Positions 21,348 to 64,000 of a stretch of 64,000 bases of DNA are shown in pieces (position 1 is the stretch's first letter; every line of letters begins with the position of its first letter). The position numbers and the translations under genes were made by a program. The notes beneath the pieces were generated by a model that did not search any database, had not been told where the DNA came from, and worked only from the letters and a program-made list of their open reading frames with translations. The stretch is from Octopus vulgaris (Eukaryota), in assembly GCA_951406725.2 (NCBI GenBank), contig OX597823.1, positions 117,738,001-117,802,000 on the forward strand. Reading direction: 5' to 3'.

Positions 21348-22101
21348 AGGTAGACCCAGGAAAACCTGGGACGAGGTGGTGAAGCCCGACTGCTACACCC
21401 TAGCAGTTGAGGGAACCTGTTGAAGAGGTAGACGCAGGAAAACCTGGGACGAGGTGGTGAAGCACGACCTTCGAACTTTAGGTCTCACCAAGGAAATGAC
21501 TAGAGACTGAGACCTATGGAAGTATGCTGTGCGTGAGAAGACCCGGCAAGACTAGTCAGGCCATAACCCGTGGCCCCTACCTGGGACGTAGTCAGTCCAC
21601 CTGTGCATACCTTCCTTCTTGTGACACTTGTGAAGACCTGTTGAGGCAAGTGAAAATCAAACCAAATCAAAATAGATGAACATCAATGGAATTTGTATCT
21701 TTGTGGTACCGCATCGACTGGCCTCCGTGCTGTGGGCACGTAACAAACACCATCTGATCGTGGCCGTTCGCCAGCCTCATCTGGCACCTGTGTCGGTGGC
21801 ACATAAAAAACACCATCCGAGCGTGGCCGTCTGCCAGCCTCGTCTGGCACCTGTGTCGGTGGCACATAAAAACATCATCCGAGCGTGGCCGTTCGCCAGC
21901 CTCGTCTGGCACCTGTGTCGGTGGCACATAAAATCACCCACTACACTCTCGGAGTGGTTGGCGTTAGGAGGGGCATCCAGCTGTAGAAACACTGCCAGAT
22001 CTGACTGGGTTGGTGCAGCCATCGGGCTCCCCAGACCCCAGTTGAACCGTCCAACCCATGCTAGCATGGAAAGCGGACGTTAAATGATGATGATGATGAT
22101 G
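21348..22101 (+). mobile_element. 5'-truncated RTE LINE (ORF end, 3'UTR with ~61 bp repeats, (TGA)n tail)
   Basis: Encodes RKTWDEVVKHDLRTLGLTKEMT..LWKYAVREKTRQD*. The 3' tail is shared with 40190-40362. Confidence 0.88.
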
Positions 22102-35349: not shown

Positions 35350-35526
35350 TTGTTTCAGCACACAATCTCATATCAAGTCACTTGCTATGCAAGTATATTT
35401 CTGTAATATATATATATATATATAGCCTCGCCTAGTATTACATATTATATATAATTCATTAGTTATTGTTGTCTATCGATCAGCCTCGATTTTTCGTGGG
35501 GTGCGCCCGCACTCCCACCCCCTCCA

Positions 35527-36710
35527 CCGTTGCAGGAAGCCTTAAATTTTCTCATCCTTGTTGACTCCCATGTACACTTCAAAGTCTTACACCGCCTCCA
35601 CCGCTACAGGAAGTCCTAAATTTTCTCATCCTTGTTGTCTCCCATGTACACTTCAAAGTCTTACACCGCCCCCACCGCTACAGGAAGTCCTAAATTTTCT
35701 CATCCTTGTTGTCTCCCATGTACACTTCAAAGTCTTACACCGCCCCCACCGCTACAGGAAGTCCTAAATTTTCTCATCCTTGTTGTCTCCCATGTACACT
35801 TCAAAGTCTTACACTGCCCCCACCGCTACAGGAAGTCCTAAATTTTCTCATCCTTGTTGTCTCCCATGTACACTTCAAAGTCTTACACCGGCCCCACCGC
35901 TACAGGAAGTCCTAAATTTTCTCATCCTTGTTGTCTCCCAAGTACACTTCAAAGTCTTACACCGCCCCCACCGCTACAGGAAGTCCTAAATTTTCTCATC
36001 CTTGTTGTCTCCCATGTACACTTCAAAGTCTTACACCGCCCCCACCGCTACAGGAAGTCCTAAATTTTCTCATCCTTGTTGTCTCCCATGTACACTTCAA
36101 AGTCTTACACCGCCCCCACCGCTACAGGAAGTCCTAAATTTTCTCATCCTTGTTGTCTCCCATGTACACATCAAAGTCTTACACCGCCCCCACCGCTACA
36201 GGAAGTCCTAAATTTTCTCACCCTTGTTGTCTCCCATGTACACTTCAAAGTCTTACACCGCCCCCACCGCTACAGGAAGTCCTAAATTTTCTCATCCTTG
36301 TTGTCTCCCATGTACACTTCAAAGTCTTACACCGCCCCCACCGCTACAGGAAGTCCTAAATTTTTTCATCCTTGTTGTCTCCCATGTACACATCAAAGTC
36401 TTACACCGCCCCCACCGCTACAGGAAGTCCTAAATTTTCTCATCCTTGTTGTCTCCCATGTACACTTCAAAGTCTTACACCGCCCCCACCGCTACAGGAA
36501 GTCCTAAATTTTCTCATCCTTGTTGTCTCCCATGTACACTTCAAAGTCTTACACCGCCCCCACCGCTACAGGAAGTCCTAAATTTTCTCATCCTTGTTGT
36601 CTCCCATGTACACTTCAAAGTTTTACACCGCCCCCACCGCTACAGGAAGTCCTAAATTTTCTCACCCTTGTTGTCTCCCATGTACACTTCAAAGTCTTAC
36701 GCCACCCCCA
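35527..36710 (+). repeat. 16 x 74 bp tandem repeat (minisatellite) upstream of the RTE ORF
   Basis: Unit ccgctacaggaagtcctaaattttctcatccttgttgtctcccatgtacacttcaaagtcttacaccgccccca. The ORF track recurs every 74 nt. Confidence 0.97.
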
Positions 36711-36817
36711 CCTCCTTCCATAAAAGGTAGTGGTCATTCATTGAAAGATACACTTCAAAGTCTTATGCCACCTGCACCTCCTTCCATAAAAGGTAGTGGT
36801 CATTCATTGCAAGATAT
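36711..36817 (+). repeat. ~1.6 copies of a related 66 bp unit
   Basis: cctccttccataaaaggtagtggtcattcattg occurs at 36711 and 36777. It shares tacacttcaaagtctta with the 74-mer. Confidence 0.85.
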
Positions 36818-44074: not shown

Positions 44075-44162
44075 AGATATATATGTATATATACATAAAT
44101 AAAGATATGTATATATATATATAAATAAATAAAGATATATATATATATATACATAAATAAAG

Positions 44163-44199
<37 letters not shown>

Positions 44200-44212
44200 C
44201 ACATAAATAAAG

Positions 44213-44289
<77 letters not shown>

Positions 44290-44523
44290 CATATACATAT
44301 AAATATATATACACATATGTATATATATATACATATGTATATATATATACATATGTATATATATATACATATGTATATATATATACATATGTATATATAT
44401 ATACATATGTATATATATATACATATATATATATACACATATATATATATACATATATATATACATACATATATATATACATACATATATATATATACAT
44501 ACATATATATATATACATACATA

Positions 44524-44564
<41 letters not shown>

Positions 44565-44570
44565 ACATAC

Positions 44571-44601
<31 letters not shown>

Positions 44602-44609
44602 CATACATA

Positions 44610-44641
<32 letters not shown>

Positions 44642-44899
44642 CATACATATATATATATACATAAATATATATATATACATACATATATATATATACATAC
44701 ATATATATATATACATACATATATATATACATACATATATATATACATACATATATATATATACATACATATATATATATACATACATATATATATACAT
44801 GCATATATATATATATACATATATATATACATACATATATATATACATACATATATATATATACATACATATATATATATATACATACATATATACATA
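44075..44899. repeat. (TA)n/(TACA) compound microsatellite
   Basis: Direct inspection. Confidence 0.95.
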
Positions 44900-45052
44900 C
44901 ATCATCATCATCATCATCATTTAGCGTCCGCTTTCCATGCTAGCATGGGTTGGACGGGTCAACTGGGGTCTGTGAAGCTGGAAGGCTTCGTCAGGCCCAG
45001 TCAGATCTGGCAGTGTTTCTATGGCTGGATGCCCTTCCTAACACCAACCACT
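44900..45052 (-). mobile_element. Short RTE tail fragment
   Basis: (CAT)n-ttagcgtccgctttccatgctagcatggg...ggatgcccttcctaacaccaaccact. Confidence 0.85.
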
Positions 45053-45055
45053 CAA

Positions 45056-45491
<436 letters not shown>

Positions 45492-45580
45492 ATAACTTAG
45501 AATAACTTAGAAAGGTTTTTTGCCAGTATTGGCCCAGGCCATGTCTAACTTAATAGCACCACCTGGCGAAGTCTTTCAGT

Positions 45581-48500
45581 TCAGGATTTGGGCACCAAGG
45601 CCCATTCGAGCAGAGAGTTATTGTTTGCGGAGACATATCCGGGTGTGGATGGTTTGTCCGGTACTGTTTGAAGGAATTTGTCCAAAGACTTCTTGAATTT
45701 TGTGTGGTCAGTTTCTTTTTTGACGTGTCCTGGTGTAATGTTGAAGAGAGCGGGTCCAATTGAGGTGAAATAGTTGTGCCGTATTGTCGTTATGTGATGC
45801 GATTTAGATTTTTGTTGTGGACGGATGGCACGTGGTCCAAGCCTTGGATGCATTTTGAAGGTGATGCCAACATCATTCGGACAGTGCTGATGGAATATTT
45901 TCCACATCATACAGATAATGTAGCGTTCACGGCGTCGTTGGAGTGAATACAATTTCAGCTTCTCTAGTCTACCCCAGTAGTCAAGGTCTGACATGCCATC
46001 TATCTTTTTTGTGATTGACCTTTGGGGAGCTTCAATTCTCATAATATTTTGTTTTGTGTAGGGAGACCACAGTGGACAGCAGTATTCAAGGTGGGGTCGG
46101 GCAAAAGTGGAGAAGAGAAGGATAATAGCGTGGGAATCTCTCGACTGGAAGGTTCTGAGAATCCAGGAACACATTCTGCGGGCCATGTCAACTTTGCTGC
46201 TTATATGTGTAGCCCAGCTTATGTTGTTGTCCACTGTTACTCCCAGGTCTCTGATGTTGTTGGATGCCATGAGAATTTCTCCAGAAGGAAGAGAGTATGG
46301 GAGTTTCAGAGCGTCCTCTCTTCCAAAGTGGATCAGTTCGAATTTGTCTTCATTTAGCAACATGTTATTCTTTTCCGCCCATTGGACAACAGCCAGTAGG
46401 TCTGACTGAAGGTTTATTCGGTCATCCACGCCATTGATGACCTTCTGGAGCTTGGAATCATCAGCGAAGGTTCTGATGTTGCTGTGTTTGATGGTGTCAG
46501 TAATATCATTTATGTAGATGATGAAGAGAAGTGGGCCCAACACAGTGCCTTGTGGGACACCACTGCTGACTTTGGCTGGGCTGGATTTGACTCCTTCGAC
46601 TACAACATGTTGGGTTCTGTTAGAGAGGAAGCACTTGATCCATTGCAGCAGCTTTCCAGTGACACCAATATTGGACAGCTTTCTCAGAAGGATCTTATGA
46701 TCAACCCTGTCAAAGGCCTTGCTGAAATCAAGGTAGATGACATCAGTGTTGGAACCCTCTCCCAAGGCTCTCAAAATGTCATCAAAATGATGCAGTAGCT
46801 GCGTCAGGCAATCTCTCCCATTACGGAATCCATGCTGGTTGGGGTTCAGCATATTATGACTCTCAAGGAAGTGAGTCATACGCGATCTCAGCACCCTCTC
46901 AAATACCTTGATGATATGAGAGGTGAGTGAGATTGGACGGTAATTCACGGCAAGCGATTTGTTTCCTTTTTTGAAAACTGGGACAACAGACTGGGATAGA
47001 AGGTCTTCTGGTATATATCCAGCATCCAATGAGTTCCGCCACAGATTGGCTAGAGGGGGTGCAAGTTGGTTTTGACACATCTTCAAGACACAAGCAGGGA
47101 ACCTATCGGGACCTACTGCTGAATTATGCTTCATTTCCTTTATTGCTGCTAAGACATCAGGAGCGCCAAATGTTATGTCCGATAAAGTGTATTGGGGAGT
47201 AACATCACTGATACAGCCCAGATCAGTCATATCAGGATTGCTGAAAACAGAGCAATATTGTTTCTGCAATATTTCTCCCATGGTTTTGGCATTGTCTTGA
47301 AGAATACCATTTTCATCAATCAGAGGGCCAACAGTAGAACCAGTGACTCTGTGTTTTTTTGCAAATGAAAAGAACACTTTGGGATTGAGTTTGATCTTCT
47401 CAATGGCCCAGGCCTCTTCAGCTCTTCGCTGACTATTGATGATAGACATCATGTTGTTTTGGAGTTTATGTTTTTTAATCTCTAGCGACGAGATGGCAGT
47501 CAGGTTGGTGTGTTGCTGTTGACAGTATTTCAGCATGTTGATCTTTTTGTTGATTCTTTTAATTTTCCTTATGAGAGATTTTCTATTTCTAGGGATTCGA
47601 CACTTAGATTTGTTTGCAGATCTTAATGGGGTGTGTCTTGCACATATGTTCGTGATGGTGTCTACAAGTGACTGCCAGGACTTTTTGATGTTAGTGGGTG
47701 TGTATGTGTGCGTGAAGGACCAATCGACTTGTGCAAGATCATTATTGATCGCTTCCCAGTTTGCATTGTGGAAATCCATAGTGTCAAATGGATGAACAGG
47801 AGGGATGACATTTGTTTTGCATTTTGGCCAGTGAAATCTCAGATCACAGAGAACCATGTCATGGTCGGAGAGTAGGGTTTTCTCCACTGCAATATTGTGG
47901 ATAGTATCAGTGTGATTGCTGAAAATTAAGTCTAAGACGTTTTTGTGACATCTCGTTGGTTCGAGTACCAGTTGGGACAAGAAGAAGTCATCCATGAAGT
48001 CAAGAAGCGATTCCACTGCCTCCCTGTCAGGGGTTGAGAGAGAAGAACCTGGCAGCAGACTGTTTGTAGACCAGTCAACCCCGGGAAGGTTGAAATCTCC
48101 CATCATTAAAATGTTGTCAGGTTGACACTGCTGAATGAAACACTTTATGCTGTTGAGGCATTCCTTGAAGCATGGTAGGGGCGTTTGGGGTGGTCTGTAG
48201 AGCCCAACTACTGTTAAGTTGTTGGTTTGACTGAATACAGCGACTGCTTCGCAGTATCCATTCGAAAATATGTTCATGGCTTCTGTTGAGAATGAATCAT
48301 GGACATAAATGGCAGTCCCACCCTTTCTTCTGCCAACACGATCAGCACGAATGGTTTTGAAATTTTTAACTTTCACCTCGGCTTCCAAGTGGAGGTCACT
48401 AAGATGGGTTTCAGTGAGGACGAAGAAAGGGATGTGGTTTGGATGGGCCTCGACCCAGTCCTCCAGGAATCTTATCTTCCATTTTTGTGTATTGGTGGAA

Positions 48501-48598
48501 GGGCTGATGCCTTGGGCATTAAGCAGAAATGTTGAGGCGAGAGTGGATGGTTTTAATTGTTTTGGTGATTTGTTTATTTGATTGCTTTTTAATGGCAT
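45581..48598 (-). CDS. LINE ORF2: apurinic-like endonuclease + reverse transcriptase
   Basis: 1005 aa uninterrupted. EN motifs LNAQG, TETHL, YRPP, GDFN, SDH. RT motifs [33 protein letters not shown]1-like RPHLEYC. Confidence 0.96.
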   Translation of the reverse strand: MPLKSNQINKSPKQLKPSTLASTFLLNAQGISPSTNTQKWKIRFLEDWVEAHPNHIPFFVLTETHLSDLHLEAEVKVKNFKTIRADRVGRRKGGTAIYVHDSFSTEAMNIFSNGYCEAVAVFSQTNNLTVVGLYRPPQTPLPCFKECLNSIKCFIQQCQPDNILMMGDFNLPGVDWSTNSLLPGSSLSTPDREAVESLLDFMDDFFLSQLVLEPTRCHKNVLDLIFSNHTDTIHNIAVEKTLLSDHDMVLCDLRFHWPKCKTNVIPPVHPFDTMDFHNANWEAINNDLAQVDWSFTHTYTPTNIKKSWQSLVDTITNICARHTPLRSANKSKCRIPRNRKSLIRKIKRINKKINMLKYCQQQHTNLTAISSLEIKKHKLQNNMMSIINSQRRAEEAWAIEKIKLNPKVFFSFAKKHRVTGSTVGPLIDENGILQDNAKTMGEILQKQYCSVFSNPDMTDLGCISDVTPQYTLSDITFGAPDVLAAIKEMKHNSAVGPDRFPACVLKMCQNQLAPPLANLWRNSLDAGYIPEDLLSQSVVPVFKKGNKSLAVNYRPISLTSHIIKVFERVLRSRMTHFLESHNMLNPNQHGFRNGRDCLTQLLHHFDDILRALGEGSNTDVIYLDFSKAFDRVDHKILLRKLSNIGVTGKLLQWIKCFLSNRTQHVVVEGVKSSPAKVSSGVPQGTVLGPLLFIIYINDITDTIKHSNIRTFADDSKLQKVINGVDDRINLQSDLLAVVQWAEKNNMLLNEDKFELIHFGREDALKLPYSLPSGEILMASNNIRDLGVTVDNNISWATHISSKVDMARRMCSWILRTFQSRDSHAIILLFSTFARPHLEYCCPLWSPYTKQNIMRIEAPQRSITKKIDGMSDLDYWGRLEKLKLYSLQRRRERYIICMMWKIFHQHCPNDVGITFKMHPRLGPRAIRPQQKSKSHHITTIRHNYFTSIGPALFNITPGHVKKETDHTKFKKSLDKFLQTVPDKPSTPGYVSANNNSLLEWALVPKS

Positions 48599-49812
48599 GT
48601 GTAGTGGGGTAATAATGGTGGATGGCGGTGGGTGATAGCTCGGATGTTTTTTTCCAGTTCTTTTGCTAGATTCATTATAGCTAAAAAAGAGGAAGAAGAG
48701 GTGGTTTCCTGTCTAGGGAACCGCAGGTGACTGTGGCCACGGCTATTTTTATGTGAGTGGTTATCTTTAAATGTCCGACGAGTGCCCGGGAGATGGGTAA
48801 AGGGGCAATCCCTGTGCAAACACAATCTGTCTCGCTGGGAATAGCAGCAGATTTGGGGATTCCTTGTTTGAGATATTGGTGGTTGTGGTGATGTTGTATT
48901 ATGGTGGTTGCTGTTGTAGTTTGTGGGGATAGAGCGTTTTGTTCCAGGTAAATGGGTGAATTTGCAGTCTCTATCAGTGCACAGTCTATGGTGAAGAGAA
49001 TATCGGCAAATGATGGGGTTTCGAGTGGGTGTGTAGGTGCGTGTGTGTGTGTGAGCTGTGAAAGGTGTAGATGATAGTTTGTTGAAGTTTTGGCGACCTT
49101 TGTGACCTGTAGGAGGTAAATTCCTTGAGATAGCATTAGTAGTAGTAGCTGTAGTAGTAGTAGTAGTAGGTAGAAGAGATGTTGACAGTGGTAATGATTG
49201 AGGAGGTCGATTCCAAGACAAAGATGTTTGTCGATATATAGTGGGAGTAGTACTAGTAGTAGTAAGCAGAGGAGATGGTGTTGACAATGATGATGATTGA
49301 GCTGCTGGGGCAGTGAAAGGAAGGGGTGGTGCTTCCTGCTGTGTGACCCTGATGACTGGGGGGTCAATCGTTTCATTTAGCAAATCGGCCATTGTAGATG
49401 AATCAAGGAGTGGTTCATCCTGTTGTTGTTGTTGAGGTTGCTGTTGTTGCCTCTGAGGTTGTTGCTGCTGAAGTTGTTGTTGTTGCTGTAGCTGTTGTTG
49501 TTGTTGTTGCCGCTGAGTTTGTTGTTGTTGAGGTTGTTGTTGTTGTTGCGCCGGTGATGCATTCGAAGAGAAAACACATCTCAGTTTATCGAAGTGTTTA
49601 TTTATTAATTTAAAAGCAACTTCGATTTGTTTTAATTTATTTTGGATCTGCTGTTCAGATCGAGTTTGCAAATGGTGAACTGTTCGTTTAGCAATTTCGT
49701 TCAGACACGAAGCACCTATGCTCTCTGTTTCGGTAAGGCCATGCCATGTGTTGATAAGAACGTCGACTTCATTATCAGACCAGTTTTTGTTGGATTTTTG
49801 GTGGCTAGCCAT
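48589..49812 (-). CDS. LINE ORF1: Myb/SANT-like N-terminus, polyQ, two CCCH zinc fingers
   Basis: 407 aa ORF with NWSDNEVDVLINTW...RSEQQIQNKLK, a Q-rich tract and two C-x8-C-x4-C-x3-H motifs followed by LPGT. Homologous to the ORF at 53489-54601. Confidence 0.85.
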   Translation of the reverse strand: MASHQKSNKNWSDNEVDVLINTWHGLTETESIGASCLNEIAKRTVHHLQTRSEQQIQNKLKQIEVAFKLINKHFDKLRCVFSSNASPAQQQQQPQQQQTQRQQQQQQLQQQQQLQQQQPQRQQQQPQQQQQDEPLLDSSTMADLLNETIDPPVIRVTQQEAPPLPFTAPAAQSSSLSTPSPLLTTTSTTPTIYRQTSLSWNRPPQSLPLSTSLLPTTTTTTATTTNAISRNLPPTGHKGRQNFNKLSSTPFTAHTHTRTYTPTRNPIICRYSLHHRLCTDRDCKFTHLPGTKRSIPTNYNSNHHNTTSPQPPISQTRNPQICCYSQRDRLCLHRDCPFTHLPGTRRTFKDNHSHKNSRGHSHLRFPRQETTSSSSFLAIMNLAKELEKNIRAITHRHPPLLPHYTCH

Positions 49813-50253
49813 TCTGGTTGATATGTTTTATTAAATTTTATTTTGTTCGTTCGTTTTGTTGATTACTTTTAATTATTATTATTATTTTTTTTTTAAGGAG
49901 AAGTATGTAGAATTGATTGTACAGAATGTTTGTTGTAATACTGAGAAGTTTGTATTTGAATTATGAGCTTGTAGTTATTTTATCTTTCTTTTCTTTTCTT
50001 TTTTTTTTTTCCTCTTTTTCTAATTTTTAATGTGTGGGTGATCCTTTAGTTATCAGAAGGTGTTTGAAAATATTTGGTCGTTTGAAAATTATGAAAATAG
50101 TTTGTGGTTAAGGAAAAGTCTACTCACGAGTTGGGAAAAAGCGTGGTTTCAAATATACAGGAATATATGTGATGGTCAATTACGACGAATGTAGCTGTGA
50201 AGCTTGCTGCTGACCGGCGCAGAGAGGAGACATATATATATATACATATATAC

Positions 50254-50286
<33 letters not shown>

Positions 50287-50376
50287 CTTTGATACTTTGT
50301 TACTTTGATAGGTTTCGGCCATTATTGGCCCAGGCCATGTCTAACTTAATAGCACCACCTGGTGAAGTCTTTCAAG

Positions 50377-53300
50377 TCAAAATTTGGGCACTATGGCCCA
50401 CTCAAGTAGAGAGTTATTGTTTACAGAGACATATCCGGGTGTAGGGGGTTTATCCGGGATTTCTTGAAGGAATCTGTCCAAAGACTTCTTGAACCCTATA
50501 GGGTCAGTTTCTGTTTTAATGTGTTTTGGTGTAATGTTAAAGAGAGCGGGGCCAATTGAGGTGAAATAATTGTGCCGTATTGTTGTTATGAGATGAGAGT
50601 GCGATTTTTGTTTTGGGCGGATGGCACGGGGCCCAAGCCTTGGATGTACCTTAAAGGTGATGCCAACATCATTTGGGCAATGCTGATGGAATATTTTCCA
50701 CATCATGCAGATGATGTAGCGCTCACGACGACGTTGGAGAGAATAAAGTTTTAGCTTTTCTAGTCGACCCCAATAGTTGAGGCCTGTCATGCCATCTATC
50801 TTTTTTGTGATTGCCCTTTGAGGTGCTTCAACTTTTATGATACCTTGTATTGTGTGGGGAGACCACAGTGGACAACAGTATTCAAGGTGGGGTCGGGCAA
50901 AAGTGGAGAAGAGAAGGATAATGGTGTGGATATCTCTCGACTGGAAAGTTCTGAGAATCCAGGAACACATTCTGCGGGCCATGTCAACTTTGGTGTTTAT
51001 ATGAGTGGCCCAGCTTATGTTGTTGTCCACAATTACTCCCAAGTCTCTGATGTTGTTGGACGCCGCGAGAGTTTCACCTGAAGGAAGGGAGTATGGGAGT
51101 TTCGGGGCATCCTCTTTTCCAAAGTGGATTAGCTCAAATTTATCCTCGTTCAGCAGCATATTGTTTTTTTCTGCCCATTGGATAACAGCCAGTAGATCTG
51201 ACTGAAGGCATGTCCGGTCACTCGCCTCATTTATGACCTTCTGTAGCTTGGAATCATCTGCAAAGATTTTTATGTTGCTGTGCTTGATGATGTCATTAAT
51301 GTCATTAATGTAAATGATGAAAAGAAGTGGGCCCAGCACAGTGCCTTGCGGAACGCCACTACTGACTTTGGCTGGGCTTGATTTTACCCCTTCAACTACA
51401 ACATGTTGAGATCTGTCTGTCAGGAAACACTTGATCCATTTCAGTAACTTTCCAGAGACACCAATGTTGGATAGTTTTTTTCAATAGGATCTTGTGATCG
51501 ACCCTGTCGAAGGCCTTACTGAAATCAAGGTAGATGACATCGGTGTTGGAGCCCTCTCCCAAAGCTCTCAAAATGTCCTCAAAGTGATGCAGGAGCTGCG
51601 TTAGGCAGTCCCTTCCATTACGGAACCCATGTTGGTTGGAGATCAGCCGTCTGTTGCTTTCCAGAAATTGGGTTATTTGAGATCTCACCACCCTCTCAAA
51701 TACCTTGATGATATGAGAGGTGAGTGAGATCGGACGGTAATTCACTGCAAGGGACTTGTTTCCCTTTTTGAAAACTGGGACAACAGACTGGGACAGAAGG
51801 TTTTTTGGAATATAGCCAGCATCCAGTGAGTTTCTCCACAGATTAGCAAGGGGAGATGCAAGTTGGTGTCGACACACCTTCAGGACACAAGCAGGGAACC
51901 TATCGGGGCCTACTGCTGAATTGTGTTTTATTTCGTTTATCGCCGCTAAGACATCAGGGGCACTAAACATTATGTCCGATATAGTGTGTTGGGGGTTGAC
52001 ATCACTGATACAGCCCAGATCGGCCATATCAGGATTGCTGAAAACAGAGCAGTATTGTTTCTGCAGTATCTCGGCCATGGATTTGGCATTATCTTGGAGA
52101 GTGCCAGTTTCGTCAATTAGAGGGCCTACAGTGGAGACAGTGACCCTGCGTTTCCTCGCAAATGAAAAGAACACTTTGGGGTTGAGTTTGATTTTTTCAA
52201 TGGCCCACTTCTCCTCAGCTGATCTTTGATTATTGATGAGGGTCTTCATGCATTGTTGGAGGTTATATTTTTGGGATTCAAGCAGTGCGATAGCCGTCGA
52301 ATGTGTGTGTTGCTGTTGGCAGTACTTTAGTTTGTTAATTTTTTTGTTTGTTCTTTTTATTTTTCTGATAATGGTTTTTCTGTTTTGGGGGATTCTGCAC
52401 TTTTTGTTCACAGGTCTTAGTGGGGAGTGTTTTGCACATATGTCTGTGACGGTGTCTACAAAGATCTGCCAAGATGTTTTATGGTTGGTGGAGATGTGTG
52501 TATGTGTAAAGGACCAGTCAACATGTGATAACTCATTCCTGATTGCATCCCAGTTGGCATTATGGAGATCCATGTTGTCAAATGGGTGGGCTGGAGGAAG
52601 GTCACTAGGATTAGCTTTTGGCTGGTGGAATTTCATGTTACAGAGAACCATGTCATGGTCTGAAAGAAGGGTTTTTTCCACTGTAACGTTATGTATAGTG
52701 TTAGTGTGGTTACTAAACACTAGGTCCAAAAGGTTCTGATGTCTTGTTGGTGCAAGGACAAGTTGGGACAAGAAAAACTCATTCGTAAAGTCGAAAAGTG
52801 ACTCTGCTGCTTCTTTGTCAGTGGTTGAGGCGGGAGTGCTTGGTTTCAAACAGTTTGTAGTCCAGTCAACACAGGGTAGATTGAAGTCTCCCATCATGAG
52901 TATGTTGCTAGAATGGCACTGTTGAATAAAGCACTTAATGCTGTTGAGGCATTCTTTAAAGCACAGTATGGGTGTTTGGGGCGGCCTATAGAGCCCAATT
53001 ACTGTCAGGTCATTGGCTTTGTTGTGCACGGTGACTGATTCACAGTAGCCGTTGGAGAATATACTATTTCCATCTGCCGTAAATGAATCATGCAGGAAAA
53101 TGGCAGTTCCACCCTTCCTCCTGCCGATACGATCCGTGCGGATGGTTGTGAAATTCTTCACTCTCACTTCGGCTTCCAAGTGGGAGTTGTCAAGGTGGGT
53201 CTCAGTGAGAATGAAGAAAGGGATGTGGTGTGAATGGTTACCAACCCAGTCTTCAATGAATTGGACCTTCCATTTTTGTGCATTGATGGAAGGGCTGACA

Positions 53301-53395
53301 CCTTGTGCATTGAGTAGGAATGTGGAGGTTAGTGTAGTGGCTGGTTTTGACTGTTGCAGGGGGCTTGGATTTTTTGTGTGTGTTAGTGGCAGCAA
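50377..53395 (-). pseudogene. ORF2 (APE-RT) of copy 2, split by a +1 frameshift near 51480
   Basis: ORFs 51392-53395 and 50377-51339 are collinear with copy 1 ORF2. The T run at ~51475-51481 has 7 T versus 6 in copy 3. Confidence 0.9.
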
Positions 53396-53488
53396 TGTGG
53401 GAATTGGTGCACTGGGGTAATAGCATAGGATGGTGTTGAGTGATGGCTAGAATGTTTTTGTGTATCTCTTTTGCCATGTTCAACATGG

Positions 53489-54601
53489 CTAAAAAGAATT
53501 TTCCCGCTTAGGGAGCAGTTTTTGGCTGGAGGTGTGGTTGCACTGTTGGATAGGGTTGTAGTTTCCACTTTTGTTGTTGTTGTTTTTGTGTCTTCCTGAA
53601 AAGACTGGACCAGCATTACTGCAGCATGGTGTGTTTCTATTTTTATTTTTATTCAGGTTTGTGTGTTGGCTTGAAGCCCCGTTTCTGTTTGTGCGTCGGG
53701 TCCCTGGAAGATGAGTGAAGGGACAGTCACTCAGCAGACATGTTCTCTCACGTTGGGAATACCGGCAGATTTTGGGACTCCGAGTTGTGTGTGTTTTGAA
53801 TTTCGATTTACTATTTAGTGGTGTTGATGTTATTGTGGGATGCGTGCTTTGGCCTTGGCCGGTAGTGCGTCTAGTGCCGGGTAGATGCGTGAAGATGCAG
53901 TCACTATTTGTGCAGAGTCTCTGGCGCAGTGAATAGCGGCATATTTGGGGATTTCTTGTTTGTGCCGTGGGGGGCGCATTCTGCTTCCTATGTTTCTTTA
54001 AGTTTTTGTTACTGCAGTAGTATTGAGGTGGTGATGTGGGGGAAGAGGGCAGTGGGTTCTTATTTGGTTTTCTGTTGGTATTTTTGGTGATAGAAGACGA
54101 TGGTGGCAGCGGTGGTGATGATGATGATGATAATTGTGGTGAGAGTGGTGAAAAGATACTGGCATTTAGTGAATCATCTAGTAAGCTAGAGTTGAGGAGT
54201 GGCTGTTGTTGTTCTTGTTGCTGTGGCTGTTGTTGTTGTTGTTGTGCCTGACCGATGTTAGGGTCAGCCATTGTGCTGGGAACCAGGAGTGGCTCATTCT
54301 GTTGTTGTTGTTGTTGTGGCTGCTGATTTTCTAGCTGTTGCTGTTCTTGAACTGTGAAAATATGAAGAAGCTTTTCATAATGGCCTTTTGTCAGTTTGAA
54401 AGATACTTCCATATGTTTCAGTTTGCTACGAATCTGTTTGACGGATCCTGTGTTGACCACTTGTGATGTTTTTTCAGCAATCTCATTCAAACACAAAACA
54501 TTTAGATTTTCTGTTTGGGAAAGAGAGAACCATGTGTTTATTAAAACATCAATTTCGTTATCAGACCAATTTCGTCTGTTGCAGGCCTGCAAGTTAGTCA
54601 T
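53489..54601 (-). CDS. LINE ORF1 of copy 2 (Myb/SANT-like, polyQ, 2x CCCH)
   Basis: 370 aa with NWSDNEIDVLINTW, CRYSLRQRLCTNSDCIFTH and CRYSQRERTCLLSDCPFTH. The C-terminal segment homologous to copy 1 continues in ORF 53253-53486 after a 1-nt shorter T run. Confidence 0.82.
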   Translation of the reverse strand: MTNLQACNRRNWSDNEIDVLINTWFSLSQTENLNVLCLNEIAEKTSQVVNTGSVKQIRSKLKHMEVSFKLTKGHYEKLLHIFTVQEQQQLENQQPQQQQQQNEPLLVPSTMADPNIGQAQQQQQQPQQQEQQQPLLNSSLLDDSLNASIFSPLSPQLSSSSSPPLPPSSSITKNTNRKPNKNPLPSSPTSPPQYYCSNKNLKKHRKQNAPPTAQTRNPQICRYSLRQRLCTNSDCIFTHLPGTRRTTGQGQSTHPTITSTPLNSKSKFKTHTTRSPKICRYSQRERTCLLSDCPFTHLPGTRRTNRNGASSQHTNLNKNKNRNTPCCSNAGPVFSGRHKNNNNKSGNYNPIQQCNHTSSQKLLPKRENSF

Positions 54602-54892
54602 GTTTGTTTTTCTTTTGTTTGTTTTCCTTTTGATTTTTGAAAATATATATATTCTTTCTTGGGAGTTAAAGAAGTGTATATATATATAAATGTTCTCTCT
54701 TAAGGGTGTGAGTTTTTGATTATTTGGTTGTTTGAGGATATTAAAAGAAAAACAGGTGTATATAACAATTTGTAGTTAAATGAAAACGTACTTACGGGTT
54801 TGTAGGCAAACACGTGGTTACAAATATATATATATTTAAGGTCAGTTAAGTTTTGAAGCTGTGTAGCTTGCTACTGACTTGCTACTGACTTG

Positions 54893-58932
<4,040 letters not shown>

Positions 58933-60385
58933 ACTTTGATACTTTGATACTTTGATAGGTTTCGGCCATTATTGGCCCAGGCCATGTCTAACTTAATAGC
59001 ACCACCTGGTGAAGTCTTTCAAATCAGAATTTGGGCACTATGGCCCACTCAAGTAGAGAGTTATTGTTTACAGAGACATATCCGGGTGTAGGGGGTTTAT
59101 CCGGGATTTCTTGAAGGAATCTGTCCAAAGACTTCTTGAACCCTATAGGGTCAGTTTCTGTTTTAATGTGTTTTGGTGTAATGTTAAAGAGAGCGGGGCC
59201 AATTGAGGTGAAATAATTGTGCCGTATTGTTGTTATGAGATGAGAGTGCGATTTTTGTTTTGGGCGGATGGCACGGGGCCCAAGCCTTGGATGTACCTTA
59301 AAGGTGATGCCAACATCATTTGGGCAATGCTGATGGAATATTTTCCACATCATGCAGATGATGTAGCGCTCACGACGACGTTGGAGAGAATAGAGTTTTA
59401 GCTTTTCTAGTCGACCCCAATAGTCGAGGCCTGTCATGCCATCTATCTTTTTTGTGATTGCCCTTTGAGGTGCTTCGACTTTTTGATACCTTGTATTGTG
59501 TGGGGAGACCACAGTGGACAACAGTATTCAAGGTGGGGTCGGGCAAAAGTGGAGAAGAGAAGGATAATGGTGTGGATATCTCTCGACTGGAAAGTTCTGA
59601 GAATCCAGGAACACATTCTGCGGGCCATGTCAACTTTGGTGTTTATATGAGTGGCCCAGCTTACGTTGTTGTCCACAATTACTCCCAAGTCTCTGATGTT
59701 GTTGGACGCCGCGAGAGTTTCACCTGAAGGAAGGGAGTATGGGAGTTTCGGGGCATCCTCTTTTCCAAAGTGGATTAGCTCAAATTTATCCTCGTTCAGC
59801 AGCATATTGTTTTTTTCTGCCCATTGGATAACAGCCAGTAGATCTGACTGAAGGCATGTCCGGTCACTCGCCTCATTTATTACCTTCTGTATCTTGGAGT
59901 CATCTGCAAAGATTTTTATGTTGCTGTGCTTGATGATGTCATTAATGTCATTAATGTAACTGATGAAAAGAAGTGGGCCCAGCACAATGCCTTGCGGAAC
60001 GCCACTACTGACTTTGGCTGGGCTTGATTTTACCCTTTCAACTACAACATGTTGAGATCTGTCTGTCAGGAAACACTTAATCTATTTCAGTAACTTTCCA
60101 GAGACACCAATGTTGGATAGTTTTTTCAATAGGATCTTGTGATCGACCCTGTCGAAGGCCTTACTGAAATCAAGGTAGATGACATCGGTGTTGGAGCCCT
60201 CTCCCAAAGCTCTCAAAATGTCCTCAAAGTGATGCAGGAGCTGCGTTAGGCAGTCCCTTCCATTACGGAACCCATGTTGGTTGGAGATCAGCCGTCTGTT
60301 GCTTTCCAGAAATTGGGTTATTTGAGATCTCACCGTCCTCTCAAATACCTTGATGATATGAGAGGTGAGTGAGATCGGACGGTAA

Positions 60386-60388
<3 letters not shown>
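58933..60388 (-). mobile_element. 5'-truncated CR1-group LINE (copy 3), nearly identical to copy 2
   Basis: RT C-terminal half, 3'UTR and (TATCAAAG)x3 tail. Truncated at NYRPISLT and joined directly to (TA)n; 1-nt frameshift near 59480. Confidence 0.92.
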
Positions 60389-62340
<1,952 letters not shown>

Positions 62341-62343
<3 letters not shown>

Positions 62344-64000
62344 TCATCATCATCATCATCATCATTTAGCGTCCGTTTTCCATGCTAGCATGGGTTGGAC
62401 GGTTCAACTGGGGTCTGGGGAGCCCGAAGGCTGCACCAGGCCAGTCAGATCTGGCAGTGTTTCTACAGCTGGATGCCCTTCCTAACGCCAACCACTCCGA
62501 GAGTGTAGTGGGTGATTTTATGTGCCACCGACACAGGTGCTAGACGAGGCTGGCGAACGGCCACGCTCGGATGGTGTTTTTATGTGCCACCGACACAGGT
62601 GCCAGACGAGGCTGGCAGACGGCCACGCTCGGATGGTGTTTTTATGTGCCACCGACACAGGTGCCAGATGAGGCTGGCGGACAGCCACGATCGGATGGTG
62701 TTTGTTATGTCCCCAAAGCACGGAGGCCAGTCTATGCGGTACTGGCTACGGCCACGTTCGGATGATTTTCTTGTGTGCCACCGGCACTGGTACCACAAAG
62801 ATACAAATTCCATTGATGTTCATCTATTTTGATTTGTTTTGATTTGATTTGATTTTCACTTGCCTCAACAGGTCTTCACAAGTGTCACAAGAAGGAAGGT
62901 ATGCACAGGTGGACTGACTACGTCCCAGGTAGGGGCCACGGGTTATGGCCTGACTAGTCTTGCCGGGTCTTCGGATGGTGTTTTTATGTGCCACCGACAC
63001 AGGTGCCAGATGAGGCTGGCGAACGGCCACGATCGGATGGTGTTTGTTGCGTGCCCACAGCACGGAGGCCAGTCGATGCGGTACTGGCTACGGCCACGTT
63101 CGGATGGTTTTCTTGTGTGCCACCGGCACTAATTTACCACAAGATACAAATTCCATTGATGTTCATCTATTTTGATTTGATTTGATTTGATTTTCACTTG
63201 CCTCAACAGGTCTTCACAGGTCTTCACAAGTGTCACAAGAAGGAAGGAAGGTATGCACAGGTGGACTGACTACGTCCCAAGTAGGGGCCATGGGTTATGG
63301 CCTGACTAGTCTTGCCGGGTCTTCGGTTGGTGTTTTTATGTGCCACCGACACAGGTGCCAGATGAGGCTGGCGGACGGCCACGATCGGATGGTGTTATGT
63401 GCCCACATCACAGAGGCCAGTCGATGCGGTACTGGCTACGGCCACGTTCGGATGGTTTTCTTGTGTGCCACCGGTACTGGTACCACAAAGATACAAATTC
63501 CATTGATGTTCATCTATTTTGATTTGGTTTGATTTGATTTGATTTGATTTTGATTTTCACTTGCCTCAACAGGTCTTCACAAGTGTCATAAGTAGGAAGG
63601 TATGCACAGGTGGACTGACTACGTCACCGGGTCTTCGGATGGTGTTTTTATGTGCCACCGACACAGGTGCCAGATGAGGCTGGCGAACGGCCACGATCGG
63701 ATGGTTTTCTTGTGTGCCACCGGTACTGGAACCACAAAGATACAAATTCCATTGATGTTCATCTATTTTGATTTGGTTTGATTTTCACTTGCCTCAACAG
63801 GTCTTCACAAGTTTGGTTTGATTTTGATTTTCACTTGCCTCAACAGGTCTTCACAAGTGTCACACGTGTCACACACTTGCCTCAACACGTCTCCACAAGT
63901 GTCACACACTTGCCTCTGCCTCCACTTGCCTCAACAGGTCTTCACAAGTGTCACACGTGTCACACACTTGCCTCAACACGTCTCCACAAGTGTCACACAC
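62341..64000 (-). mobile_element. RTE 3'UTR amplified in tandem, running off the window end
   Basis: Same subfamily as 21348-22101. A ~310-350 bp block repeats at ~62631, 62974, 63326 and 63637, followed by short cacttgcctcaaca/cacaagtgtcaca repeats. Confidence 0.88.

Follow-up and report, generated by a model that had tools for sequence, protein, structure and literature searches.

A 64,000-nucleotide stretch of the Octopus vulgaris genome (GCA_951406725.2, contig OX597823.1, positions 117,738,001 to 117,802,000; hereafter the window) carries three LINE (long interspersed nuclear element) copies on its minus strand, between 45.5 and 60.4 kb, each flanked by (TA)n-rich tracts. The first open reading frame (ORF1) of these elements places a Myb/SANT-like domain, probably in exchange for a PHD, ahead of an array of CCCH zinc fingers and is likely linked to the second (ORF2) by a -1 ribosomal frameshift; this ORF1 variant of a known LINE group is real and conserved and has apparently not been described before. 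This description is carried by the domain order, by purifying selection on the domain and the fingers, by the absence of a Myb domain from the best 150 relatives of the finger array, by an in-phase heptamer with an open -1 frame, and by an insertion bias towards TA. The elements are best explained as young LINEs of the apurinic/apyrimidinic endonuclease (APE) type, likely of the CR1 group, in which the Myb/SANT-like domain likely took the place of a PHD present in the ancestor and likely serves as a general tether to DNA or chromatin; the CCCH fingers would likely hold the element RNA, a -1 frameshift would likely join a fraction of ORF1 to the endonuclease and reverse transcriptase (RT), and the TA preference would come from the ORF2 endonuclease nicking at TA together with base pairing between the nicked target and the RNA tail, which ends in TA. 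Taken as a whole, this explanation has in our judgement an even chance of being correct. Genome searches covered 2.8 Gb in 227 contigs, with the window lying on contig C10.

The two ORF1s proposed in the initial annotation were both found, on the minus strand as are all element features given below, and encode 407 and 370 amino acids that are 49% identical. Element 1, a family A copy (45494..50224), has both ORFs open and lacks about 35 nt of the 5' end of other copies. Its ORF1 (48589..49812; 407 amino acids) consists of the Myb/SANT-like domain (residues 9-80, 49573..49788; Pfam PF13837, three helices predicted), a glutamine-rich stretch with 35 Q within residues 89-131 (49420..49548), two CCCH fingers (48940..49008 and 48781..48849) and a C-terminal helix beginning with Phe-Leu (FL-helix; residues 375-396, 48625..48690) that overlaps the -1 frame leader of ORF2. 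ORF2 (45581..48598) encodes 1005 amino acids from its AUG, with an APE endonuclease and an RT, and is followed by a 3' untranslated region (UTR; 45494..45580), in which one block is almost unchanged across families A, B and C and a short tandem tail ends in TA. Element 2, a family B copy (50287..54892), is about 80% identical to element 1 over ORF2 and carries frameshifts at the end of ORF1 and in ORF2. Its ORF1 (53489..54601; 370 amino acids) holds the corresponding domain (54362..54577, a PF13837 match) and fingers (53873..53941 and 53699..53767), and its ORF2 region (50377..53400) is broken by one frameshift near 51470 and has no in-frame AUG upstream of the endonuclease motif. Element 3 (58934..60388) also belongs to family B; it is truncated at the 5' end and shares 98.7% identity with element 2.

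Three conserved ORF1 parts had been proposed for both copies, of which the N-terminal block and the two fingers stood, whereas the C-terminal helix lies outside the second ORF as it had been delimited. In element 2 one T is missing from a six-T run, and ORF1 therefore stops at 53489, before the helix, which continues in another frame. Other family B copies keep the helix in frame, with an ORF1 of 409-410 amino acids ending in it in 9 of 29 printed copies; for family A, both fingers and a normal ORF1 end were seen in 18 of 29 printed copies. Each window ORF1 has exactly two fingers, and the spacing C-x8-C-x4-C-x3-H-LPGT is exact in all four. Between families A and B, nonsynonymous (dN) and synonymous (dS) divergence were dN 0.33 / dS 4.5 (near saturation) for the Myb domain and dN 0.16-0.19 / dS about 1.4 for the fingers, and both are thus under purifying selection. 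The Q/S/T-rich linker had been described as diverging freely; it is the least conserved part, but at dN 0.54 / dS 2.4 it is not free. The window fingers gave weak Nab2-type CCCH matches in Pfam below the cut-off, and the finger array of a third family, C, reaches the zf-CCCH_4 cut-off (24.7 against 24.6). CCCH fingers typically bind RNA, and by analogy those described here likely bind the RNA of their own element.

The Myb/SANT-like nature of the N-terminal block was upheld by Pfam for the isolated domains and by the predicted three-helix fold. The PF13837 (Myb_DNA-bind_4) gathering cut-off is 27 bits; the full window proteins scored under it (22.4 and 23.6 bits, E 1.6e-4 and 6.8e-5), the window domains scanned alone scored just above it (27.6 and 27.2 bits), and the full family C ORF1 reached 29.8 bits. 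Chance resemblance was rejected, as three diverged families exceed the cut-off; the domains of A and B are 54% alike, and either is 29-36% like that of C. An AlphaFold2 model built with a 16-row alignment of LINE copies had a predicted local distance difference test (pLDDT) score of 82, with helices at 13-29, 37-47 and 53-82, whereas the single-sequence model was poor (pLDDT 64, no Foldseek match). The helix-turn-helix-type fold that the initial annotation had anticipated was therefore predicted, with homeodomains, Myb repeats and the GT-1 trihelix domain as the top Foldseek rows for the 16-row model; structural re-alignment gave Z up to 7.4, with a root-mean-square deviation of 2.1 over 66 residues, and Z 5.3-5.4 for GT-1. 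The domain is net basic (pI 8.7-10, net charge +2 to +7, with helix 3 basic). Several results count against so specific an assignment: no Foldseek match to the 16-row model was at E 0.001 or better (best E 0.9), the Z values of 5-7.4 fall, as expected, in the range usual for any small three-helix domain, and only the first of the three regularly spaced Myb core tryptophans is kept. The second and third positions carry Leu/Tyr/Arg and Leu/Ile/Thr. Sequence searches of the PDB with the domain or its profile returned nothing meaningful, and the ESM Atlas gave leads under 0.9 only (Myb/SANT clusters 0.88, CCCH clusters 0.88). Overall, the models support the fold class, and fold and basic charge together suggest that the domain binds DNA. 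The closest non-LINE domains in the genome are two exons 18 kb apart on contig C26 (L155 and L156), which are 30-33% identical, begin with N-W-[ST]-D-N-E as the LINE domain does and likewise lack the second and third tryptophans; they represent a possible donor family of the LINE domain.

Families A and B are young and multi-copy: the first 24 listed places of the A domain are 100% identical (150 of 761 candidates scored), and the 150 scored out of 615 B candidates are all at least 93% identical. A genome search with PF13837, with 131 matches among the 150 scored, exposed family C, whose Myb-type domain scored 33-43 bits. Its ORF1 has the Myb-type domain, a Q-rich linker, four CCCH-type fingers, the last with the A/B spacing, and the same FL-helix; its ORF2 is about 62% identical to that of A, and its endonuclease differs from those of A and B at dN 0.25-0.28. 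A further, older and decayed family with the A/B layout is also present. In one family C subfamily (L327, L329, L330), part of the first finger occurs once more, upstream of the array. Many full-length copies of the LINEs show short duplications of their first 5-15 nt.

Consistent with APE-type LINEs, ORF2 encodes an APE endonuclease and then an RT, 5' truncation occurs, the 3' tail is tandem, and many copies are dispersed. In a quick IQ-TREE analysis of 65 RT rows, from which those with fewer than 200 aligned residues (P0022 and P0024-P0026 included) had been removed, families A, B and C grouped together (SH-aLRT 100). Their clade sits within a 28-row clade (99) that holds unnamed database proteins, and is separate from a clade of metagenome elements with esterase or PHD ORF1s. 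The tree holds no named reference elements; membership of the CR1 group is likely, and the elements presumably carry the CR1-type C-terminal motif. The only LINEs in metagenome contigs were distantly related ones (about 30%), whose ORF1s were of the esterase, PHD or coiled-coil type; neither the Myb domain nor the fingers had a match there. The nearly invariant 3' UTR block, of about 45 nt, is predicted to form a hairpin (window 45520-45570 and 50310-50365; L188:5740-5790), for which no covariation support was found. The 5' ends show little similarity among A, B and C other than a short motif (L002:1040-1100, L040:1175-1230, L186:1055-1110), a candidate internal promoter.

The CCCH array is not peculiar to this genome. 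In an exhaustive search, the family C array is shared by 1,649 database representatives at E 0.001 or better, 610 of them at 1e-10; early blanks, in which a word-index search found no homologue of the full ORF1 and only one partial protein for the family C fingers, reflected low sensitivity. Among the best 150 of the 1,649, which were the relatives examined, the spacing of the last finger is kept in 143 and the Myb profile reaches inclusion in 0. A PHD-like C4HC3 pattern was found in 77 of the 91 relatives of at least 340 amino acids, and Pfam applied to 60 relatives returned PHD in 8 and PF13837 in 0. Of 132 long tails, 117 have an FL after the fingers, whereas composition would predict about 28. 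Because the Myb domain is absent from the best 150 relatives and a PHD-like motif is present in most of the long ones, Myb probably replaced PHD: the ancestral ORF1 was probably composed of PHD, CCCH array and FL-helix, with its N-terminal module exchanged for the Myb/SANT-like domain in this lineage. We infer the direction of the swap, from PHD to Myb, from these sequences, and the simplest reading is that A and B subsequently kept two fingers of the last type. A weakness of this reconstruction is that the relatives, which lack genomic context, are taken as LINE ORF1s from their shared layout. Several relatives with PHD and CCCH (P0080, P0081, P0083, P0086, P0089 and others) have an extra helical region ahead of the PHD, with no Pfam name, which may be a further module for binding nucleic acids.

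At the start of the FL-helix, all three families contain an in-phase U_UUU_UUA heptamer encoding x-F-L, with ORF2 in the -1 frame. In element 1 the site (48682..48688) is a candidate frameshift site with codons x-Phe-Leu and a -1 frame open into ORF2; in element 2 (53490..53495) it has five T. Six T were found in 29 of 31 A, 21 of 33 B and 12 of 13 C copies in which the site was located (at 3 A and 6 C loci an endonuclease start was present and a T-run was not). The -1 frame leads without a stop into the endonuclease in 28 of 31 A, 22 of 33 B and 7 of 13 C copies; among the 22 B copies where it does, 20 lack an AUG in it. With amino acids and ORF1 codon use held fixed, the probability of the heptamer is 0.02-0.05 per family; leucine is rarely TTA in these elements, TTA on both sides at a conserved leucine occurring in 1/84, 0/73 and 0/70 cases, and A and C are near synonymous saturation. 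The in-phase X_XXY_YYZ form and the open -1 frame by which a programmed frameshift is recognised are thus both present. Fusion of ORF1 to ORF2 is likely, since all three families keep the heptamer in phase with ORF2 in the -1 frame and B does so without an upstream ORF2 AUG, and a trans-frame product is predicted. The same heptamer, in the same phase, lies where a structural ORF overlaps an enzymatic one in HIV-1 gag-pol (PMC5009743); the LINEs differ in having no consistent downstream stem-loop and in being known from sequence alone. If the frameshift is real, a minority product would carry Myb, polyQ, CCCH, endonuclease and RT in one chain, with ORF1 covalently tied to the endonuclease.

Some features argue the other way. 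No stimulatory RNA structure was predicted 5-9 nt downstream in A, C or C2, in a prediction of pseudoknot-free structures; B alone has a 7-bp hairpin (z -4.0), which abuts the site with no spacer. The FL could be kept for protein reasons. An AUG overlaps the ORF1 end in A and another lies inside the overlap in C, so that reinitiation is possible in these two families. Translation of ORF2 by termination-reinitiation or by non-AUG initiation, with the heptamer an accident of the conserved x-F-L helix start and ORF1p a separate RNA chaperone, is accordingly a somewhat unlikely but credible alternative. It gains from the open -1 frame having a probability of 0.06-0.30 under synonymous shuffling, and from precedents in the available portions of two reports, namely SART1, whose ORF2 is made from an overlapping stop-start (PMC3894237), and L1, whose ORF2 initiation is unusual (PMC5009743). 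It has to contend with the absence of an AUG from most B copies, with an AUG position that differs between A and C, and with an improbable heptamer kept across synonymously saturated families; in the relatives, moreover, the residue before FL could be encoded by a U-ending codon in 116 of 117, though a helix N-cap preference overlaps with this.

Four copies (L066, L067, L196 and L327), with a T-run two bases short or a site otherwise shortened, have ORF1 and ORF2 in one frame of 1,360-1,440 amino acids; they are probably homopolymer slips, yet display what the fusion product would be. An in-phase U_UUU_UUA also occurs in a distant metagenome LINE with an esterase ORF1 (L073, 1414-1459), close ahead of the ORF1 stop, and ORF2 there lies in the -1 frame; of 21 distant loci examined it is the only one with the heptamer.

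The (TA)n-rich tracts of the window lie 3' of element 1 (44077..45494, where a short repeat with an ATG tail breaks the tract), between elements 1 and 2 (50232..50286), between elements 2 and 3 (54893..58933) and 5' of element 3 (60389..62341). For the genome, a TA tract was taken as 8 TA dinucleotides in 30 nt, with a looser rule for 5' flanks, and 200 kb of arbitrarily chosen regions gave a background of 5.3% (3' rule) and 7.8% (looser 5' rule). Family A lies in TA tracts at 29/30 3' flanks and 24/29 5' flanks, family B at 28/29 5' flanks and at 4/4 full-length 3' ends, and family C at 14/30 3' flanks and 13/25 5' flanks; these counts include the window copies, and no junction was obtained at one locus each of A and B. 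A 3' search for family B gave 7 matches. Nearly all insertions of A and B, and not those of C, are therefore in one target. A single-ORF RTE element without a Myb domain lies in TA tracts at 15/29 (tail trimmed, query copy excluded). By Fisher's test, A differs from C (p 2e-5) and from RTE (p 8e-6) and C does not differ from RTE (p = 1.0), with the reservation that the RTE copies are older (94-97% identity, against 98-99% for C 3' ends) and their flanks may be eroded. A full-length RTE-type LINE (L318:1570-5500), with one 1,043-amino-acid ORF and a 5' UTR of about 700 nt, stands beside (TA)n. An (ATG)n-tailed, SINE-like (short interspersed element) repeat, at window 44921-45053 and 62366-62500 and in five further places, often adjoins TA tracts as well; as a control, 19 copies from the window and random regions were given a rough look, the genome search having yielded none.

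A bare TATA preference would put 53% of insertions in TA tracts, and 10-12 bp of TA gives 91-95%; C and RTE need only a short TA preference. The proposal in the initial annotation that ORF1 is a (TA)n-targeting module finds no support in family C, which has the best Myb score and is in TA at 14/30, like the RTE without the domain. The TA preference is likely explained most simply by endonuclease and tail, in a genome with half of its TATA 4-mers in TA tracts. In A, B and C the tail passes directly into TA, which makes pairing of tail and target possible; 21 truncated family C copies showed no clear target-site duplications, and some with TA on the 3' side only suggest that part of the 3' TA may arise at insertion. 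A difficulty for this account is the strictness of A and B, which exceeds what a preference for TATA would give (97% needs 10-12 bp of TA) and which it would have to assign to the endonuclease; the alignment of the endonuclease to solved structures ends before the specificity loop. The ORF2 of TRAS presumably holds a Myb-like region. TRAS1 and SART1 of the R1 clade are likewise APE LINEs concentrated in a simple repeat, with possible pairing between 3' RNA and target, and their specificity has been traced to the endonuclease and the 3' UTR, the APE endonucleases by themselves recognising 10-12 bp of a microsatellite (PMC7265360). ORF1 is thus not needed to account for the strictness seen in A and B.

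As for the domain itself, its most likely role is to hold the complex on DNA or chromatin, an assignment on which we would lay an even stake. A direct role in targeting, in which the Myb-like domain of A and B reads (TA)n in a sequence-specific way and, fused to ORF2 through the -1 frameshift, brings the endonuclease to long TA tracts in a design convergent with R2, is unlikely and is possible for A and B only. Homeodomains, which are the top structural matches, read TA-rich DNA. The flank bias of A and B far over background and the differences of A from C and from RTE would fit such a reader, and the A and B domains, more alike to each other than to C, could differ from it in specificity. R2, also a non-LTR (long terminal repeat) element with a Myb domain, uses it for target recognition: as far as the available text goes, the domain sits within the single ORF, has been shown to bind ribosomal DNA and is paired with a restriction-like nuclease (PMC12503042). 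In the octopus LINEs the domain is of the PF13837 type, stands in ORF1 alongside an APE nuclease and is described from genomic data; if the frameshift is real, they would share with R2 the assembly of Myb, zinc fingers, nuclease and RT in one chain. Family C, however, keeps the domain and is no more TA-bound than the RTE that lacks it, A and B differ from C also in endonuclease, finger number and tail, and the TRAS1 and SART1 endonucleases show that no such reader is required. The full composite, in which a host- or Harbinger-type Myb was captured in place of the PHD, fused by an HIV-type -1 frameshift and turned into an ORF1 reader that makes A and B (TA)n-specific, so that an APE LINE rebuilt the R2 targeting design from separate parts, is quite unlikely.

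The Harbinger Myb-like protein binds its own element's ends. By analogy, the domain could bind the 5' UTR motif of its own element and regulate transcription or assembly, and the motif common to the 5' ends of A, B and C and the presence of PF13837-type domains in host regulators of this genome would fit; an internal promoter to which host factors bind would account for the motif just as well, and this role is improbable. The PIF/Harbinger Myb-like protein and the host MSANTD/trihelix (GT-1) proteins belong to the same Pfam family, PF13837, but are DNA-transposon or host proteins without CCCH fingers. Finally, a SANT-like histone-tail or protein-interaction module that took over chromatin reading from the PHD without contacting DNA would suit the place that the domain occupies and the departure of its aromatic core from DNA-binding Myb repeats, and is likewise improbable; histone-binding SANT domains are acidic, whereas this domain has a net charge of +2 to +7 with helix 3 basic.

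The judgement in the initial annotation that this combination is new among described LINE ORF1s agrees with the published CR1/LINE ORF1 classifications (PMC4120745; a vertebrate CR1 survey of 2026, PMC13343379; Ivancevic 2016, PMC5203782), from which, in their available parts, Myb/SANT with CCCH is absent; neither these surveys nor the available text of a gastropod survey (PMC11203168) mentions a Myb or CCCH domain. The CR1-group ORF1 types of Khazina and Weichenrieder and of Metcalfe and Casane (2014; PMC4120745) share with the present elements the two-ORF APE-RT layout, the short tandem tail and a modular ORF1 with a swapped N-terminal module, but the table in the accessible portion of the latter has PHD, RRM, CCHC, Tnp22, esterase and zinc-finger/leucine-zipper (zf/lz) types only, with no Myb, SANT or CCCH. 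Its CR1 subgroup 2, of type V, has a PHD with under 10% of the ORF identified (PMC4120745, same portion), and may, as a guess, be the PHD-CCCH relatives. The available sections of two papers on octopus transposable elements (PMC13282606, PMC9115989) report young CR1 families or RTE and no CR1 ORF1 domains, and those of a Hydra CR1 paper (PMC6859323) give no such ORF1 domains. Judged by title or abstract, none of the papers listed in full-text searches on CR1 or LINE ORF1 with CCCH, Myb or ribosomal frameshifting describes such elements, and Repbase, Dfam, supplements and subscription journals may already annotate the families.

These elements bear on the role of ORF1 outside L1, on the translation of ORF2 and on how APE LINEs become site-specific: three related young families share a new ORF1 domain and differ in (TA)n strictness, and the window provides one intact copy and a candidate frameshift site. 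Should the specificity reside in ORF1, this would offer a portable targeting module for retrotransposon-based gene insertion. Elsewhere in the window are a 74-bp tandem repeat (35516-36712; 16 copies, 97% identity) and nested 62-bp, 342-bp and 42/91-bp tandem repeats (62511-64000), the 62-bp unit of which occurs again at 21735-21938.

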